Assembly: GCA_963740635.1 (NCBI GenBank)
Contig: CAVUEQ010000003.1
Coordinates: 97,350-161,349 of the forward strand
DNA from: an uncultured bacterium
GTDB lineage: Bacteria > Patescibacteriota > Saccharimonadia > UBA4664
Reading direction: 5' to 3'
Length of the DNA: 64,000 nucleotides
In this document: positions 3,912-51,811 of the stretch, in pieces
How the letters are laid out: every line of letters starts with the position of its first letter
Position numbering within the stretch: position 1 is the first letter of the stretch
The notes under the pieces: model-generated
What the model saw: only the letters and a program-made list of their open reading frames with translations
Told to the model about the DNA's origin: nothing
Databases searched by the model: none
Translations under genes and position numbers: made by a program

Positions 3912-5555
3912 ATGACCGACCCGACCGTCGCCTACTTTTCGGCTGAGTATGCCATAGCCGACGACATGCCGATCTACGCCGGGGGCTTAGGGGTACTGGC
4001 GGCGGATACGGTACTGGAGGCCGGCGCGCAAAACCGGGAGTTTTATGCACTGGGGCTGGTGTACCACCTGGCGTTTACGGGGTCGGATCCGGACCAGCGC
4101 ACCATGAACGAGCGGCTGGTGGGCAATGGGTTCGAGGTGGCGAAGGATGCTTCAGGAAAGCCAATCAACGCCACTGTGCACGTGGCGGACCGCACGGTTA
4201 TTTTGCAATGCTGGGTGAAAAAGTGGGGCCGCACGCGGCTGCTGCTGCTAGACACCAACTTGGACCAGAACGACCCGCGCGACCGGGCGATTTGCGACCG
4301 GCTGTACGCCAGCGACCCCAACCTGCAGCTGGCCCAGGAGATTTGCCTCGGGTTCGGCGGGGTAGCAATGATGGAGGAGTTGGGGCTGGAGCCCGACGTC
4401 TACCACCTCAACGAGGGCCACACGGCCATGGCCGGCCTGGCGGTGGCACTGCGGGCGCTGGAGACCAGCCCCGGCATCCTGAACCTGGATATGGCGGTGG
4501 CGAAAGTCAGGCGCCGGCTGGTGGGCACCAAGCACACGATACTGGCCGGCGCCGGCATTTTGCTCGACTGGGGCAGCATGACACGCCAGCTCGGGCCGAT
4601 GCTGACGGCGCACGGAGCATCGGTCGACGAGCTGCGCGGAATGGCCGGGCTGCCCAACGGGGATTATTCCGATACCCGGCTGATGATCGAGCTGACCCAC
4701 CTGGCCAGCGGCGTGTCGAAAATCCATGTGGCCGAAGAACTGGAGGCGCACTCCAACAGCCGGCTGATCCCGATTACCAACGGCGTGTACCGGGGGCGGT
4801 GGGTGGCCGAAAACTGGGGCGACCAGCCGCTGGAATTGGGTGATGCCGAGATTTGGGCGAAGCACAGCCAAAATCGCCGTAACCTGTTCGGCATGATCAA
4901 AACCCAAACCGGTGACCAGCTCGACCCGGACCGGCTGACGGTGGTGTGGTCGCGGCGGATGGCGGCCTACAAGCGGCCGGAACTTTTGGCGAGCGACCTG
5001 GGGCGGCTCGAGGCCCTGGTGCGCCACCAGACGCACCCCGTGCAGTTCGTGGTGGCGGGGCGGGCCAACCCGTCCGACGCGGTGGGCACCGAGCTGATGA
5101 ACCGGGTGATTGCGGCGTCGAAGCGGCCGGCGCTGGCCAAGCATTTTGCCTACCTGCCGCGCTACAACCCGGCGACGGCCAAGCTGCTGGTGCGCGGTGC
5201 CGACCTGTGGCTCAACACGCCGATTCGCGGCTACGAGGCGTGCGGAACCAGTGGCATGAAGGCCAGCCTCAACGGCGCGCTGCAGTTTTCGACCTCGGAC
5301 GGCTGGCTCGACGAGGTGAAGCTGGCCGAGATCGGGTGGCGGCTGCCCGTGGAACGCGCGGCGGCGGAACTATACGAGCGGCTGGAAGACGACATTGCGC
5401 CCATGTTTTACGAGCGCGGCGCCGACGGACTGCCACGGGAGTGGATCAAGCTGATGCGGGCAAACATGAAGCTGGTGGCGGACCAATTTACCGCGACCCG
5501 GATGCTTTCGGAATATTACTCTAAATTGTACGCGCCTCAAGCTTCGTTTGATTAG
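3912..5555 (+). CDS. glgP: alpha-glucan (glycogen) phosphorylase family protein, GT35
   Basis: 547 aa. YFSAEYAI..PIYAGGLGVLAAD..HLNEGHTA.. and the C-terminal ..TSGMKASLNG.. match alpha-glucan family phosphorylases. Confidence 0.9.
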   Translation: MTDPTVAYFSAEYAIADDMPIYAGGLGVLAADTVLEAGAQNREFYALGLVYHLAFTGSDPDQRTMNERLVGNGFEVAKDASGKPINATVHVADRTVILQCWVKKWGRTRLLLLDTNLDQNDPRDRAICDRLYASDPNLQLAQEICLGFGGVAMMEELGLEPDVYHLNEGHTAMAGLAVALRALETSPGILNLDMAVAKVRRRLVGTKHTILAGAGILLDWGSMTRQLGPMLTAHGASVDELRGMAGLPNGDYSDTRLMIELTHLASGVSKIHVAEELEAHSNSRLIPITNGVYRGRWVAENWGDQPLELGDAEIWAKHSQNRRNLFGMIKTQTGDQLDPDRLTVVWSRRMAAYKRPELLASDLGRLEALVRHQTHPVQFVVAGRANPSDAVGTELMNRVIAASKRPALAKHFAYLPRYNPATAKLLVRGADLWLNTPIRGYEACGTSGMKASLNGALQFSTSDGWLDEVKLAEIGWRLPVERAAAELYERLEDDIAPMFYERGADGLPREWIKLMRANMKLVADQFTATRMLSEYYSKLYAPQASFD

Positions 5556-6084: not shown

Positions 6085-6127
6085 ACTAGGTATTCCAATC
6101 ACCTAGTGAGTGATTGGAATACCTAGT
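6085..6127. repeat. perfect 18-bp inverted repeat (hairpin) between the toroid-protein gene and ruvC
   Basis: ACTAGGTATTCCAATCAC-ctagtga-GTGATTGGAATACCTAGT. A T-run follows only on the plus strand, where no gene ends. Confidence 0.7.
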
Positions 6128-6151: not shown

Positions 6152-7444
6152 TTAGCGGTTGCGGGCGCGGGCGAAGTGCAGGCGAACAGCCAAGCCAGTG
6201 AGGGCAGCAATGACTGCAGCCATTAGAAGCAGGATCAAATTCGAGACTACACCCACGGCGGGGAGGGTACTGGACCCCAGGACCGTGCCGGTGGCGCTAG
6301 CAGGCGGGGTGGTGGAGGCGCCGAGGACCGAACCGGCCGGGGTGGGGCTGGGTGTGGGAGTCACGCTCGGACTGGGCGATGGGCTGGGGCTGGGAGACCG
6401 CGACTGCAAGTTGATGTCGTCGCCCTGGCCGGGCAGGAGGCCGGCGTAGACGCTGAGCGGGAATTGGCCGCCGGCGAGGGCGGTGACGGCCGGGGTGGTG
6501 TCGAACACGTCGCCGGCAGCGGGCGCCTGGTACGGGAAGCTGCCGTCGGCGGATTGGGCGGCGCGGATGTAGGCCTGGGCGTTGGTGCCGGCGGGCGCGT
6601 TGGCTTGGCCGAGCGCGTCGAAGGCCATCACGACCCAACTGGTACTGGAGACGTCGGAGACCGGGCCGCCCCAGGCGGGAGGCGTGAGCGGGTCGTACGG
6701 GAAGCCGCCGTCGGCGTTTTGGGTGCCGAGCAGGTAGCTGGTGGCGTTGGTGAGGGCGGTGGTGACAGCGGTGCTGGCGAGGCCGGCGTTTTGCAGGGCC
6801 TTAAGCGCCATGATGGCCGCGGCGGTGTCGTTGGTGTCGGAGCCGGTGGCCGGGTCGGTGGTGTAGCTGAAGCCGCCGTCGGCGTGCTGAGCAGCCAGCA
6901 CGAAAGCCAGCGCGTCGGTGAGCACGGTGTCGGACAGGCTGTCGCGGGCGGCGCTCAAAGCTATGAGGCCGAAGAGGTCATCGTTGACGGCGGTGGCGCT
7001 GCCGATCTGGCCGGAGGCGGCGAAGGTCTTGAGGTGCGCCACATAGTCGGTTCCGCCGAAATTGTACGGATTCTGGCCGTCGGCCGTGATGGCGATGATA
7101 CTGCGCTCCCAGTCGGTGGCGGCGGCTGCGGCGCCGGGCGCGTTGGCGGCCAGGTGCGCGCGCAGGCTGGTGCCGCCGCTGGTGTGGACGGTGCTGAGGT
7201 CGAAGCCGGCGGCGCTCAAAGCCACAGCCGACCAGCCGGTCTCGGAGGCTGAGGCCCCGATGTGGCCGTCGGCGGCCTGCTGGGTTTGCAAATAGGCCGC
7301 ACCGTTGGCGACCGGCGTTTGGTTATCGGCGCTAATCGCAAAGGCATTTTCGGCAGGGGCTAAAGCCAAAGCAAGGACGGGAACGATCACCGAGATTTTT
7401 GATAGTGTTTTCAAGAACGTTCTCCTGATTATTGATGCTTCCAT
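6152..7444 (-). CDS. secreted prenyltransferase/squalene-oxidase-repeat (alpha/alpha toroid) protein with LPxTG-like C-terminal anchor
   Basis: Signal peptide, then repeated ..QxADGGFxY.. units typical of terpenoid-cyclase/prenyltransferase-like repeats. A PSPSPSPSPS linker follows, then LPAVG + hydrophobic helix + RARNR tail. Confidence 0.7.
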   Translation of the reverse strand: MEASIIRRTFLKTLSKISVIVPVLALALAPAENAFAISADNQTPVANGAAYLQTQQAADGHIGASASETGWSAVALSAAGFDLSTVHTSGGTSLRAHLAANAPGAAAAATDWERSIIAITADGQNPYNFGGTDYVAHLKTFAASGQIGSATAVNDDLFGLIALSAARDSLSDTVLTDALAFVLAAQHADGGFSYTTDPATGSDTNDTAAAIMALKALQNAGLASTAVTTALTNATSYLLGTQNADGGFPYDPLTPPAWGGPVSDVSSTSWVVMAFDALGQANAPAGTNAQAYIRAAQSADGSFPYQAPAAGDVFDTTPAVTALAGGQFPLSVYAGLLPGQGDDINLQSRSPSPSPSPSPSVTPTPSPTPAGSVLGASTTPPASATGTVLGSSTLPAVGVVSNLILLLMAAVIAALTGLAVRLHFARARNR

Positions 7445-8109
7445 GTGACAATCGATCCGTCGATGGGCTGCATTGACCCTGCGTAGGTACAGCCATAAAT
7501 ATTCCCATTAGGGGGACTACCGTTTTTTACACCGTATTCCCACCCTGAGACACCGTTTATTTCCTCCACAAAGAGGCTTTTTAAGGAAGCGTACTTGTCG
7601 GTGATAGTGACAGAGCTAATCTCGCCTTCTCGCTTGGCTTCTTCGAGTACCGTGCAGGCATTTGCTCCTGATAGGAGTTCAACCAAATACGACGAGCTCG
7701 CCTGGCCAATGGTCACGATCAATGTGACACGAGGCGATGGCGTGGGTGTGGCTGGATTTACAACACGTGTCTGGGTCCGCGTTTGGGCGGGTGTGGGCGC
7801 GGTGGAGGCACCGGCAACCGCCGGCAAGGCTGTGGGCGCTGGTGAAGGCGACGGATTATCTGACGCTTCCGGCGTGGCCAACGGTGAGGGGTTCGAATCT
7901 GGAGTGACTGCTGTGTGTGTAGGCAAGAGCGTGAGCGGGTGGTGCGGCGAGCGGGCCAGGGCCGCGGCCCCGCCGAGCCCAGCCACGGCCACAACCGCTA
8001 GCAGCAGTCGGGCCGGCTTCACTTTTAATCGCCTGAACATAAAATCCCCCACATCCATGCGGAGTTGAGGGTTCCAGAAAGCGAAAAAGCTTCCCGGAAG
8101 AGAAGCCAT
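7429..8109 (-). CDS. DUF4430 (transcobalamin-like C-terminal beta-domain) protein, secreted or membrane-anchored
   Basis: The C-terminal ..EEINGVSGWEYGVKNG...DGSIVTWKH matches the DUF4430 pattern. N-terminal TM/signal and Pro/Thr linker. It overlaps the downstream gene by 16 nt. Alternative start at 8040. Confidence 0.7.
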   Translation of the reverse strand: MASLPGSFFAFWNPQLRMDVGDFMFRRLKVKPARLLLAVVAVAGLGGAAALARSPHHPLTLLPTHTAVTPDSNPSPLATPEASDNPSPSPAPTALPAVAGASTAPTPAQTRTQTRVVNPATPTPSPRVTLIVTIGQASSSYLVELLSGANACTVLEEAKREGEISSVTITDKYASLKSLFVEEINGVSGWEYGVKNGSPPNGNIYGCTYAGSMQPIDGSIVTWKHQ

Positions 8110-8258
8110 AGCGGCGAACTCTTTCCTTTAATCCGAAGGATAAGCGTTTGCCATGAGGGTGCGGTCCGGCTTTACGGTAGCGGTACTGCTCTGAATTTCA
8201 CAGATGCTCGCCTCATGGCGGTTTGCGTTGTTAAACCGATCAACTCACTCGGTCGGTA
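8110..8258 (-). promoter_or_regulatory. candidate cobalamin (B12) riboswitch leader
   Basis: The closing helix GCCATGAGG (8219-8211)/CCTCATGGC (8158-8150) encloses UGUGAAAUUCA, GCAGUACCGCUACCGUAA and AAGCCGGACCGCAC, which resemble the cobalamin core and B12 box. A UCCUU/AAGGA hairpin (8140-8124) can mask the SD. Confidence 0.45.
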
Positions 8259-8264
8259 TGTCTG

Positions 8265-8293
8265 ATAGTATGGCCCGCTTGCTGCGCTGTCAA
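8265..8293 (-). promoter_or_regulatory. sigma70-type promoter TTGACA-17 nt-TACTAT for the riboswitch-led operon
   Basis: The minus strand reads TTGACA (8293-8288), a 17-nt spacer, then TACTAT (8270-8265). It starts immediately after the yebC-family stop codon. Confidence 0.6.
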
Positions 8294-8299
8294 GGACAG

Positions 8300-9061
8300 C
8301 TAGTCCAGTTTTTCGAGGATGTCGGGTGGGATGTCGAAATTGGCGAACGTTCCGGTGACGTCGTCGAGGTCGTCGAGGGCGTCCATGAGGCGCATGAGCT
8401 TGCGGGCGGCGTCCGGGTCAGTGATGGCGACGGGGGTGTTGGGCTCGAACGACAGCTCGGCCTTTTCGATCTGGTGGCTTTTGGCGGCGAGGGCACGGCG
8501 AACGTGGTCGAGGTCGGTGGGGACGGTGTAAACAATGAGGCTCCCCTCCTCCGCCTCGGCGGATCTTCGACCTTCTTCGACGTCCTCGGCGCCGGCTTCG
8601 ATGGCGTCCATGGTGGCGGCTTCGAGGTCCTTGGCCTCGACGACGATGACGCCGCGCTGGGTAAACTGGTAGCTCACGCTGCCCGGCGTGCCGAGGCTGC
8701 CGCCGTGCTTGGTGAAGGCGCTGCGGACTTCGGGAGCGGTGCGGTTGCGGTTGTCGGTGGCGGTTTCCACGATGATGGCGGCGCCGCCGGGGCCGTAGCC
8801 CTCGTAGGTGATTTCTTCGAAGGTGCCGCCGCCATCCTGGCCTGCGCCGCGCTTGATGGCGCGCTCGATGTTGGCGTTGGGCACGCCGGATTTGCGCGCC
8901 AAGTCGACGGCCAGGCGGAGTTTGAAGTTGGTTTCCGGATCGCCACCGGCGCGAGCAGCCACGGAAATGAGGTTGGCGAACTTGGTGAAGCTGGCGCCGC
9001 GACGGGCGTCTTTGATGCCTTTTTGGTGCTTAATGGAAGCCCATTTGGAGTGTCCGGACAT
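8300..9061 (-). CDS. YebC/PmpR family DNA-binding transcriptional regulator
   Basis: MSGHSKWASIKHQKG..DARRG..F.K is the invariant YebC N-terminus. 253 aa. Confidence 0.92.
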   Translation of the reverse strand: MSGHSKWASIKHQKGIKDARRGASFTKFANLISVAARAGGDPETNFKLRLAVDLARKSGVPNANIERAIKRGAGQDGGGTFEEITYEGYGPGGAAIIVETATDNRNRTAPEVRSAFTKHGGSLGTPGSVSYQFTQRGVIVVEAKDLEAATMDAIEAGAEDVEEGRRSAEAEEGSLIVYTVPTDLDHVRRALAAKSHQIEKAELSFEPNTPVAITDPDAARKLMRLMDALDDLDDVTGTFANFDIPPDILEKLD

Positions 9062-50246: not shown

Positions 50247-50322
50247 GGGTCCGTAGCTCAGTGGTTAGAGCAGGCGGCTCATAACCGCTTGGTCGCAGGT
50301 TCAAATCCTGCCGGACCCACCA
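50247..50322 (+). tRNA. tRNA with anticodon CAU (Met elongator or lysidine-modified Ile2), CCA encoded; integration target
   Basis: GGGTCCG..GGCGG-CTCATAA-CCGCT..GGTTCAAATCC..CGGACCCACCA. 1:72 are paired. The last 44 nt are overlapped antisense by the recombinase ORF. Confidence 0.88.
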
Positions 50323-51811
50323 ATGTTGATTTATCGTCAGCGATTTGCTGAATTACCTCAAAACAAAGCCCTAATTTAGCGGTTCCAAAACCTATCCCGA
50401 AGTCATACCTAATTCCACCCGGGAAGATCATCTTTTGGAACCGGCGTTTGTATTCCGGTTCCGCATCCTCCCACATCTTCGCCAGGTTACCAATAAAGTT
50501 AGCCGCATAACCTACTATCGCATCGCGGTCCAACTCCTCCTCCCACGCCTGCCCCCGCTGCATTTGCATCGTTACTAGCTCACTATCAATCTGATCTATC
50601 ACGCGCTTATTCTTCGCTAACTGCCCGGTTTTTGCCAGGTTGCGCACGACGGTGTCCTTTTCCTCTTCAAGAACCTGCATGGACTTATCGATCTTGCGCC
50701 TAGCGTTGCGGGCATCCGCATATTCAGACTCCCATCGCTTGAGGACTGTGGCACGAAACAGTAAGAGGTCATCGTCGGTAAACTTGACGGCTTTTAGACG
50801 TTCCAGAAACTGCCGGTGAAGTGCTTCTTTATCTTCCGAGACTTGCTTGCCGGTGACGGAGCGTCGGCACTTTGGGCAGCTGTACTTGAGATACACGCCG
50901 CCGTTGCCGCGAGGTGTGCTGCCGGTGATGGGCGTAGAGCAGAGGTGGCAAACCACGAATCCACCGCGCAGAGGCCACTCACCGCCCATTTTGGTCTTGA
51001 GCAGTCCCTTGCGCGGTTTGCCGGTAAGTATGTCTTGGTTGGCCTCAAACTCGCTCATAGTTATCAGGCCAGCATGTAGGCCTTTGCGATCACCCTCAAC
51101 CAACTTGCTTCTCACGATACCGGCGTAAACACCATTTCGGAGCATGTTGCAGGTGTACTGGTACACCAGCCTTTTGCCAGACTTGTTGGTGATGCCCATC
51201 TGCCAAGCCAGCTTGTGCATCTCACGCTGCGTATAGACGCCCTTAGAGAACTCCCGGAGCCACTTTGCTACAAGTGGTCCTTTTTCGTCTGCCTCGAGCG
51301 TAGGCCGGTTCATTGCGTCTTTGACGTTGCGGTAACCAATTGGTGCCATGAAGGGCCAACTTCCCTCTTCCACCCGCTTTGCCATTCCGCCAATGGAGCG
51401 TTCGGCGCGTACCTCGTTGTCAAACTGCGCAAATCCCGACAACATTGTCTCCATCAATCTGCCAAGGGTAGTGTCTTCTATCGGCTCGGTAACCGATGCG
51501 AGGCTCACTCCTACCTTCTTGAGCACCGCTTTGATAGCATGGTGGTCTTTGGTGCGGCGAGAGAACCGATCCAGCTTCCAAACGAGCAGGGTGCTAACTT
51601 GGCCCTTGTGCTCTTGGCAATACCTGATCAGGGCGAGGAGCTGTGGCCGGTTGGCAGTTTTGGCGCTTTCGCCCTCTTCGACAAATACCTTTAGCACCTC
51701 GAGCCCGTTGGCCTCGGCATACTTCTCGCAGGCTTCGAGTTGATTCCCCAAGCTCATATTCTCGACTTGCTCGTCGGTACTGACCCTGGTGTAGATAATG
51801 GCTGTCTTCAT
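50279..51811 (-). CDS. large serine recombinase (resolvase N-domain + recombinase domain + zinc ribbon)
   Basis: 510 aa. ..AIIYTRVSTDEQ.. catalytic Ser region, ..WKLDRFSRR.., then ..C..C......G.........YY.C..C Zn-ribbon and a coiled coil. Confidence 0.9.
   Translation of the reverse strand: MKTAIIYTRVSTDEQVENMSLGNQLEACEKYAEANGLEVLKVFVEEGESAKTANRPQLLALIRYCQEHKGQVSTLLVWKLDRFSRRTKDHHAIKAVLKKVGVSLASVTEPIEDTTLGRLMETMLSGFAQFDNEVRAERSIGGMAKRVEEGSWPFMAPIGYRNVKDAMNRPTLEADEKGPLVAKWLREFSKGVYTQREMHKLAWQMGITNKSGKRLVYQYTCNMLRNGVYAGIVRSKLVEGDRKGLHAGLITMSEFEANQDILTGKPRKGLLKTKMGGEWPLRGGFVVCHLCSTPITGSTPRGNGGVYLKYSCPKCRRSVTGKQVSEDKEALHRQFLERLKAVKFTDDDLLLFRATVLKRWESEYADARNARRKIDKSMQVLEEEKDTVVRNLAKTGQLAKNKRVIDQIDSELVTMQMQRGQAWEEELDRDAIVGYAANFIGNLAKMWEDAEPEYKRRFQKMIFPGGIRYDFGIGFGTAKLGLCFEVIQQIADDKSTLVGPAGFEPATKRL

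Follow-up and report, generated by a model that had tools for sequence, protein, structure and literature searches.

Mammalian transcobalamin, intrinsic factor and haptocorrin are built from an alpha6/alpha6 toroid and a small beta-grasp domain with a beta-hairpin insert; the presence of this insert after the helix defines the transcobalamin-like clade. This clade of SLBB domains was defined by Burroughs, Balaji, Iyer and Aravind in 2007 (PMC1796856), who described signal peptides, Gram-positive-type anchors, toroid fusions in both domain orders and operons that also encode a further SLBB protein along with CbiO/CbiQ, and proposed vitamin B12 scavenging by bacteria without B12 synthesis. In Lactobacillus sakei, lsa1836-1840 (bioRxiv 10.1101/864751) encode a split beta-like/alpha-like pair beside an energy-coupling factor (ECF) transporter, with heme uptake proposed and cobalamin left open. 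Here we analyse a two-gene locus at 8293-6152 on the minus strand of a 64,000-nucleotide stretch of DNA from an uncultured Saccharimonadia bacterium (contig CAVUEQ010000003.1; the whole stretch is hereafter called the window). Its first gene (gene 1) encodes a beta-domain protein and its second (gene 2) a toroid protein. Taken as a whole, the evidence makes it likely that the two genes form one operon, in which a divergent class-II cobalamin riboswitch, working as a transcriptional OFF switch through termination, controls a split, transcobalamin-like pair of surface proteins for corrinoid capture.

The locus does not represent a novel type of system: the proteins follow a concept put forward in 2007, and the RNA falls into an established class whose mechanism is already known. 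An earlier annotation made from the sequence alone (the sequence-only reading) knew of no characterised example, and the novelty that this implied does not hold, as surface SLBB plus toroid B12 scavengers were predicted in PMC1796856 and the L. sakei pair is split in the same way. The proteins of PMC1796856 have the domains, signal peptides, anchor type and proposed role of the window pair. They were described without riboswitch control and before most Patescibacteria genome data, and their operons have CbiO/CbiQ, whereas related Patescibacteria operons have DUF6580 and the window operon has no transporter gene. Unlike transcobalamin, the window has two polypeptides, encoded in the order beta then alpha, each with its own stalk and anchor. 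L. sakei Lsa1839/Lsa1840 follow the same beta-like then alpha-like order, are exported and were modelled as a heterodimer clamping a tetrapyrrole; their operon has ECF S, A-A' and T components and no reported riboswitch, whereas the window pair is stand-alone, riboswitch-controlled and long-stalked. Bacteroides BtuG and BtuH are functional analogues, in that they are surface-exposed and capture corrinoids with high affinity upstream of a membrane transporter. The presence of DUF4430 in Bacteroides BtuH is not supported by the BtuH paper, which mentions neither transcobalamin nor DUF domains. In the literature searched, cobalamin riboswitches and Patescibacteria were not mentioned jointly, and the texts naming Saccharibacteria, riboswitch and cobalamin together concern thiamine pyrophosphate (TPP) riboswitches.

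On the RNA side, the closest described elements are the class-II cobalamin riboswitches (RF01689, clan CL00101; env8HyCbl, PDB 4FRN/4FRG). They have in common with the window the P3-P6 four-way junction, the absence of the P2 arm, a short P6 and an L5-L13 kiss that stabilises P13; this kissing loop is a feature of every cobalamin riboswitch class (PMC7367189). Class-II members often act on translation and then have the ribosome-binding site within P13 or beside it (PMC10327014). The experimentally dissected metE corrinoid riboswitch of P. megaterium is transcriptional (PMC10327014), and its mechanism matches the one proposed here. The elements of the window aptamer, whose helices were read directly from the sequence, are as follows.

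8150-8219, minus strand: predicted class-II cobalamin riboswitch aptamer (RF01689 alignment and covariation in orthologous leaders)
8219-8211 (GCCAUGAGG) and 8158-8150 (CCUCAUGGC), minus strand: continuous P1/P3 helix of 9 bp
8204-8190, minus strand: P4 hairpin, UCUG-UGAAAUU-CAGA
8187-8179, minus strand: P5/L5, AGU-ACC-GCU
8177-8166, minus strand: P6, CCG-UAAAGC-CGG

The 9-bp helix and the UCUG/CAGA hairpin, both picked out by the sequence-only reading, were thus recovered, together with the conserved aptamer core GCAGUACCGCUACCGUAAAGCCGGACC. The T-loop-like L4 (UGAAAUU) and the core GCAGUxCCGCUACCGUAAAGCCGGA of class-II riboswitches are also those of the window. Both the sequence and the model alignment give an aptamer (8150-8219) that lacks both a P2 arm and a P6 extension, which is the class-II architecture of an absent P2 and a short P6 as defined in PMC7367189. 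The single continuous P1/P3 helix without a J1/3 bulge is class IIb-like, and the plain 6-nt loop capping P6 is class IIa-like. Because these features are mixed, selectivity for adenosylcobalamin (AdoCbl) versus methylcobalamin or hydroxocobalamin (MeCbl/HyCbl) is unreadable from sequence; the ligand, inferred in both identity and form, would be a corrinoid.

At Rfam gathering thresholds the whole window yielded four tRNAs only and no riboswitch. In a permissive scan of 7950-8350, RF01689 (AdoCbl-II) aligned over its full length (model positions 1-81) at 8150-8219 on the minus strand, with a score of 27.5 bits, 9 bits under the gathering score of 36.5, and an E-value of 2.2e-4 for this 401-nt search. 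Over the whole window the E-value of the match was just 0.035, and it was the sole riboswitch-family match at E <= 1. On the window alone, the Rfam evidence is therefore borderline. Such a score and E-value, as well as an unremarkable fold z-score of -0.79 for the leader, would fit a chance look-alike of a B12 riboswitch with no regulatory function. The comparison between loci all but rules this explanation out: about 95 loci have the same structure ahead of a homologous gene, and each helix, as well as the pseudoknot, shows compensatory changes.

The comparison covered 160 loci encoding relatives of gene 2, mostly from Patescibacteria (Saccharimonadales, Microgenomates/Levyibacteriota and Parcubacteria groups) plus some Bathyarchaeia. 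Upstream of a gene 1 ortholog of 38% identity (P0004, loci L001-L004), the aptamer core and the P13 hairpin are nearly identical to those of the window, while the P1 and terminator sequences differ. Scanning with mismatches, we found the 27-nt core upstream of the gene, on the gene strand, in 15 distinct loci besides L001-L004. Orthologous leaders also pass the Rfam gathering thresholds, either of RF01689 (L016, L014 and L011, with 47.3, 40.2 and 37.8 bits) or of RF00174 (L059, with 34.7 bits against a threshold of 31.5).

When the leaders were aligned with MAFFT, either including flanks or after trimming of P1, both P13 and the variable 3' strand of P1 were misaligned. These alignments were replaced by a hand-segmented, N-padded and structure-fitted alignment of 13 leaders (A5), with model-derived alignments used as cross-check. 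In A5, standard pairs fill 98.3% of the pair cells versus 37-48% with slid partners, both sides change in 23 of the 30 pairs, and no shuffle out of 500 came up to these values. A covariance model built from A5 (R1) was then run on all loci. The resulting 112 matches at E <= 1 were on the strand of the toroid gene except for one weak match (E = 0.3), and all those at E <= 0.1 were on the gene strand. Of the 121 loci whose upstream sequence extends for 1.5 kb or more, 82 (68%) have a match within 2 kb upstream. Across the 72 distinct R1-aligned leaders, 88.8% of cells were paired versus 38-49% in slid controls, with P4, P5, P6 and P13 paired at 96-99.6% and several positions displaying all four Watson-Crick pair types. 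The P3-P6 four-way-junction core, with its conserved B12-box region, is supported by covariation in both the 13 curated and the 72 model-aligned leaders, P4, P5 and P6 being 97-100% paired with compensatory changes. P6 insertions were present in metagenome leaders after trimming. The window leader scores 47.7 bits with R1, of which it is one of the seed sequences.

Riboswitch identity was decided on this comparative evidence, which is decisive where the window-only Rfam score is borderline: compared with its orthologs, the leader at 8150-8219 on the minus strand is, as judged from sequence, a divergent class-II cobalamin riboswitch. This agrees with the sequence-only reading, which had called the leader cobalamin-riboswitch-like and had proposed checks against Rfam models and in other genomes. 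The model check gave a mixed outcome, with a full-length RF01689 alignment and a score below the gathering threshold in the window and passing scores in orthologous leaders; as for other genomes, riboswitch matches precede the toroid gene in the 82 loci. The Rfam AdoCbl-II model overlooks a well-conserved Patescibacteria subclass.

Downstream of the aptamer, the leader contains the following elements.

8124-8140, minus strand: P13 hairpin, UCCUU-CGGAUUA-AAGGA (covariation; L13, CGG..UA, is complementary to L5, UACCG)
8078-8107, minus strand: predicted intrinsic terminator, GGCUUCUC-UUCC-GGGAAGCU then UUUUCGCUUU (8 pairs in the pattern scan)
8094-8128, minus strand: candidate anti-terminator, in which GGAAAGAG (the P13 3' side and the bases after it) pairs with CUCUUCC
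8064-8047, minus strand: Shine-Dalgarno hairpin, CUCCGCA-UGGA-UGUGGGG, which contains GGGGGA and is followed by ATG 8040-8038

The UCCUU-CGGAUUA-AAGGA hairpin noted in the sequence-only reading is present at 8140-8124. That reading suggested that it could occlude the Shine-Dalgarno sequence of an ATG at 8109, an unlikely role: by its covariation it is P13, the partner of the L5-L13 kissing loop, and an intrinsic terminator follows it. The P13 stem is 96-98% paired in the leaders with compensatory changes, and alone it is weak (-2.4 kcal/mol). Its loop co-varies with L5, the observed combinations being UGCCG/CG-A-GCA, UGACG/CG-A-UCA, GGCCG/CG-A-GCC, UCCCG/CG-A-GGA and CCCCG/CG-A-GGG, while UACCG pairs with CG-A-GUA or, in the window, with CGG..UA. 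The L13 bulge of the window comes after the third pair (CGG-AU-UA), whereas in the class-II pattern it comes after the second (CG-A-GCA). The 5-bp L5/L13 pattern occurred in 37 of 55 distinct leaders versus 20.6 +/- 2.2 with permuted loops, and 0 of 2000 permutations reached 37. A kissing loop thus joins the aptamer, through L5, to L13 in the expression platform.

The terminator hairpin (8107-8078) folds at -9.8 kcal/mol. Orthologs have a terminator at the equivalent place, with its structure kept and a different sequence, and terminator-like sites were found within about 170 nt downstream in 62 of the 76 distinct leaders (82%) compared with 25 of the 151 stretches that served as controls. A spacer of 16 nt separates P13 from the terminator and the two have no bases in common, and therefore the arrangement is a repressing one and not an activating one. 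In the mechanism that we propose, a corrinoid would fill the four-way-junction aptamer (8219-8150), L5 would kiss L13 and the weak P13 (8140-8124) would be stabilised. With P13 formed, the 5' strand of the terminator would be free, the terminator (8107-8078) would form and transcription would end before ATG 8040. Without ligand, the P13 3' side and the following bases would pair with the terminator 5' strand as an anti-terminator, and the genes would be transcribed.

The anti-terminator, postulated by analogy with P. megaterium metE (PMC10327014), is the weakest link of this scheme. The minimum-energy fold of the nascent transcript is the GGAAAGAG/CUCUUCC pairing (-11.2 kcal/mol), and L001 has an equivalent, stronger pairing. 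The complementarity is marginal across leaders (5.04 vs 4.75 +/- 0.14, a value reached by 26 of 1000 permutations), and with P13 forced a shorter anti-terminator is still able to form. In the full leader fold, ViennaRNA favours an alternative hairpin at 8073-8098 on the minus strand, UCCGGGAAGC-UUUUUC-GCUUUCUGGA, made of the terminator 3' strand, the U-run and downstream bases; it has counterparts in L001 and L088 (UUCAGGC/GCCUGAA and GCGAG/CUCGC).

A translational switch, in which the UCCUU/AAGGA hairpin sequesters the AAGGAAAGAG Shine-Dalgarno sequence of the start codon at 8109, would be in line with the many class-II riboswitches that act on translation (PMC10327014). AAGGAAAGAG lies 9-18 nt upstream of this ATG, from which a 226-aa open reading frame (ORF) is open and at which the public annotation (P0001, 226 aa) starts. 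ATG 8109 is nevertheless an unlikely start, because the terminator hairpin and U-run (8107-8078) come just after it, within the supposed coding region, and because it is missing from the orthologous leaders L001 and L088. ATG 8040 is favoured since it has its own GGGGGA Shine-Dalgarno sequence and since all of the 27 orthologs start at the equivalent position, with a basic segment and a hydrophobic anchor. Gene 1 most likely starts at ATG 8040, ATG 8109 lying probably within the leader and the public annotation being probably too long. With this start, occlusion at 8109 is unlikely and, given also the terminators in 82% of the related leaders, we regard the translational switch as quite improbable compared with the OFF switch by termination. 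By eye, hairpins that sequester a Shine-Dalgarno sequence like the one at 8064-8047 are found in the two closest orthologous leaders, L001 (~3964-3990) and L088 (~2862-2900), with a conserved loop GCCGUCGGCUGU; this hairpin may add a second, translational control layer.

The start of gene 2 was revised as well. TTG 7414 is preceded by an AGGAG Shine-Dalgarno sequence and is the public annotated start (P0005, 420 aa), while ATG 7444 has none. With this start, the 16-nt gene overlap of the sequence-only reading is probably unreal and an artefact of ORF calling. The start codons of both genes are corrected accordingly in the following list.

7429-8040, minus strand: gene 1, 203 aa from ATG 8040, with an N-terminal signal/membrane anchor, a stalk and a C-terminal beta-domain
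7432-7731, minus strand: predicted transcobalamin-beta-like (DUF4430/SLBB) domain of gene 1, 100 aa (Pfam matches of orthologs, AlphaFold/Foldseek)
6152-7414, minus strand: gene 2, 420 aa from TTG 7414 (430 aa if ATG 7444), with a signal peptide, a toroid, a stalk and an anchor

The gene 1 protein and its 27 positional orthologs share a common plan, made of an N-terminal anchor, a long Pro/Thr/Ser-rich stalk (about 75 aa in gene 1) and a domain of about 95 residues with the motif EINGxxNNWTFxVNGxSPxGCS...GDxVxWKY. The window protein has no Pfam match of its own, whether at E <= 0.1 or E <= 0.01. Among the orthologs, PF14478 (DUF4430) matches 23 of the 28 aligned sequences (best E 2e-12), and it is carried by 12 of the 15 profile matches. 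The family profile matches the transcobalamin beta-domain weakly (E 0.18-0.2) and in the correct region. The AlphaFold model of residues 104-203 has a predicted local distance difference test score (pLDDT) of 94.1 and a predicted template modelling score (pTM) of 0.86. Foldseek ranks 1-14 for this model are all transcobalamin beta-domains, with template modelling (TM) scores of 0.62-0.67 over 102 aligned columns, a probability of 1.00 and 17-22% identity; the closest superposition, over the full length, has a TM score of 0.67 at 20-22% identity. Below rank 14 come generic beta-grasp folds, at probabilities <= 0.33 bar one at 0.82, and the resemblance of the model, at the level of the whole fold, is specifically to the transcobalamin beta-domain. 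The modelled structure supports the view that gene 1 carries a transcobalamin-beta-like DUF4430/SLBB domain. The DUF4430 label of the sequence-only reading therefore stands by way of the orthologs and the predicted structure, and not by a direct Pfam match. A stalk motif, [AST]V[AL]G[AST][AST]T, is seen in both proteins, at residues 72-82 of gene 1 (ALPAVAGAST) and at residues 372-378 (SVLGAST) and 387-398 (TVLGSSTLPAVG) of gene 2 in the 430-aa numbering. It recurs in ortholog stalks (PAVAGAST, PAVLGATS) and could be a glycosylation or processing site.

The signal peptide, PSPSPS stalk and LPAVG-transmembrane-RARNR tail that the sequence-only reading saw in gene 2 are present. In full, the protein has a signal peptide (…AENAFA), followed by an alpha6/alpha6 toroid of 12 helices, a stalk of PSPSPS/PT, LPAVG (6265-6251), a transmembrane segment and RARNR. 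Its tail resembles a sorting signal, with LPAVG, 24 mostly hydrophobic residues (VVSNLILLLMAAVIAALTGLAVRL) and HFARARNR. LPxVG is nearly invariant in the orthologs (P395 and G398 in the 430-aa numbering), V replacing the canonical T. This C-terminus would be a sortase-type sorting signal that anchors the protein at the surface. The TLxTC sortase signature was not found in the 64-kb window, a scan that says little on the whole genome.

The AlphaFold toroid has 12 helices (pLDDT ~97) arranged as an alpha6/alpha6 barrel. Pfam returned only SQHop_cyclase_C/N, Prenyltrans and TED, just above thresholds, with no Cobalamin_bind match; by Pfam and the profile search of the PDB, the sequence is not a member of the eukaryotic cobalamin-binding family. 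The gene 2 family profile matches squalene-hopene cyclases in the PDB at ~1e-28 and no transcobalamin. In Foldseek, the top places go to terpene cyclases and prenyltransferase beta-subunits (E ~3e-7), with transcobalamin 4zrp_A and 2v3n at ranks 36 and 43 (E ~1e-4, TM score 0.45-0.48). As modelled, the toroid shares the fold class of the transcobalamin alpha-domain, and its nearest relatives are terpene cyclases/prenyltransferases. The transcobalamin-like toroid anticipated by the sequence-only reading thus has the fold and a significant match, and a closer kinship elsewhere.

This kinship raises the question of whether the toroid works as an enzyme on the cell surface, akin to terpene cyclases or prenyltransferases, with DUF4430 as an accessory domain and B12 exerting an indirect control. 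The best sequence and structure matches (squalene-hopene cyclase, drimenyl-diphosphate synthase) would fit such an enzyme, as would the motif DxDDTA, present in 19 of 23 family members (alignment A1). Class II terpene cyclases use DxDDTA for catalysis, with its middle Asp as the general acid. In the window and three relatives, this Asp is replaced and the motif reads DTNDTA (window residues 202-210, SDTNDTAAA). The protein is moreover a single toroid of ~300 residues and not a beta-gamma didomain, it is exported and stalked, and in the family the toroid is coupled both to DUF4430 (45 of 47 long riboswitch-linked homologs) and to the riboswitch (82 of 121 loci). We therefore hold an enzymatic role to be very unlikely. 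It is noteworthy that DxDDTA is conserved in a family of secreted, probably non-enzymatic toroids.

The coupling to DUF4430 argues for a joint function of the two window proteins. Fusion to DUF4430 is frequent among the homologs of gene 2, the 45 long homologs just cited having the toroid and PF14478 in one chain. In the closest relatives (P0033, P0038, P0039 and P0043), DUF4430 precedes the toroid, as in the gene order of the window; P0057 and P0061 have the toroid, DUF4430 and Ig-like domains, which is the transcobalamin order. Two operon classes were observed: riboswitch, small DUF4430 protein and toroid, or riboswitch and fusion protein. From fusion and co-occurrence, we infer a two-protein complex that clamps a corrinoid. 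The gene 1 beta-domain would be held on its long stalk from the N-terminal anchor and the gene 2 toroid on its own stalk by the C-terminal LPxVG sorting signal and transmembrane anchor, both displayed on the cell surface. They would clamp one corrinoid between them, as the transcobalamin alpha and beta domains do. The cell, probably a Saccharimonadia/Patescibacteria member, would thereby scavenge B12 and presumably hand the corrinoid over to a membrane transporter, which the window does not encode. Of the two-polypeptide B12-capture device set out in the sequence-only reading, the functional link between the domains and the placement under a B12 riboswitch are upheld, its novelty aside.

Related operons supply further B12 context. 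The usual next gene after the toroid encodes DUF6580 (PF20221, E ~1e-43 to 1e-49; L012, L014, L017, L022, L035, L099 and others), an uncharacterised family of multi-pass membrane proteins of about 185 aa. In L014, a PduO-type cobalamin adenosyltransferase follows DUF6580, and in P0097 the toroid is fused to a membrane domain matched by both DUF6580 and ECF S-component models. No relatives of DUF6580 were found in the PDB profile search or the NCBIfam scan, and the literature searched does not mention it. This context makes DUF6580 a candidate corrinoid importer, and we flag it as a candidate B12 transporter. By tblastn, the window has neither DUF6580 nor a PduO-type adenosyltransferase.

A second cobalamin riboswitch stands at the operon end in L014 (5859-5994), L012 (5894-5977) and L021 (5908-6069), the L014 copy scoring 40.2 bits with RF01689. 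The genes after it (L014 5937-7580, L012 6049-7731 and L021 6077-7444) encode proteins of 455-560 aa; the L014 protein, the only copy scanned, has no Pfam/NCBIfam match and has a Cys-rich C-terminus (CVVCNTGPKKLGPCNICITCD), so that its gene would be an uncharacterised one under B12 control. A DUF3800-II RNA (RF02961, 68.1 bits) lies at L022 5761-5827 on the plus strand, a few kb past the B12 operon of this Patescibacteria contig.

The pair might capture another ligand, such as heme, another tetrapyrrole or a corrinoid precursor instead of complete B12. Deletion of lsa1836-1840 lowered heme uptake in L. sakei and docking suggested a heme fit, PMC1796856 raised a distinct metabolite as a possibility for archaeal members, and in the literature searched corrinoid binding by the toroid plus DUF4430 family is predicted, with no binding data found. 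Against this stand the cobalamin riboswitch in 68% of the loci, the cobalamin adenosyltransferase in related operons and the top matches of the beta-domain, which are the B12-binding transcobalamin beta-domains. On balance we consider another ligand unlikely. Of the evidence found, what most strongly favours corrinoid handling by the bacterial toroid plus DUF4430 family is its linkage to the riboswitch in 82 of 121 loci, along with the adenosyltransferase encoded in the same operon.

Several observations count against the B12-repressed corrinoid-capture pair, in addition to the sub-threshold Rfam score, the marginal anti-terminator, the lack of a direct Pfam match for gene 1 and the cyclase-like matches of gene 2. 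The L. sakei pair was proposed to bind heme rather than cobalamin (bioRxiv 10.1101/864751). A chimera of toroid and beta-domain in the transcobalamin order gave a model whose beta part had a pLDDT of 30-67, with no usable inter-domain geometry. Searches of the window by tblastn and by Pfam on its ten largest ORFs revealed no B12 transporter, no adenosyltransferase and no enzyme that depends on B12. Finally, a gene 1 ortholog of 45% identity by BLASTP (P0003, L005 1-167) is preceded by a TTGACA that resembles a promoter element and by a short leader without a riboswitch, and therefore B12 control of the pair is not universal, even in close relatives.

With these reservations, the two genes, unnamed in public records, receive a functional annotation as a probable B12-repressed surface corrinoid binder. 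More tentatively, Patescibacteria (the candidate phyla radiation, CPR) may share an undescribed riboswitch-governed corrinoid-salvage module, comprising a surface clamp (split or fused), a DUF6580 importer and a PduO-type adenosyltransferase; the clamp of the window lineage would then be a free-standing, doubly tethered two-protein device. If such a module exists, the link to the riboswitch would decide between heme and B12 for all members of the protein family, and B12 piracy would be a core trait of Patescibacteria episymbionts.

On the minus strand, the order of elements is the stop of a yebC-family gene (8300), a promoter-like site, the long leader, the two ORFs and ruvC (identified by Pfam).

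8265-8293, minus strand: sigma-70-like candidate promoter, TTGACA (8293-8288), 17-nt spacer and TACTAT (8270-8265), directly 3' of the yebC stop

This site, already proposed as the promoter in the sequence-only reading, matches 10 of 12 consensus positions in a consensus scan, and the region holds 2 promoter-like sites versus 0.4 expected from shuffles. The stretch of about 40 nt from the predicted transcription start to P1 (8221-8258, minus strand) contains a small hairpin (CCGACCGAGUGAGUUGAUCGG) and the string UUUAACAA(N)CAAACCG, which is conserved in L001; L088 keeps UUUAACAA only.

The region from the stop of gene 2 (6152) to ATG 6009, where ruvC probably starts, contains a near-perfect inverted repeat, CTAGGTATTCCAATCAC-TCAC-TAGGTGATTGGAATACCTAG (6085-6126, minus strand), with a stem of about 20 bp and no U-run after it. 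The 152-nt intergenic stretch that holds it (6151-6000) folds at about -42 kcal/mol. It may act as a terminator at the end of the operon, serve as a palindrome for protein binding or be a repeat element. Elsewhere in the window, a 510-aa serine recombinase ORF (50279-51811, minus strand; Resolvase N-terminal domain, E 4e-37) overlaps, as called, a tRNA at 50247-50319 on the plus strand, and its position beside a tRNA gene suggests an integrated mobile element at this tRNA site.

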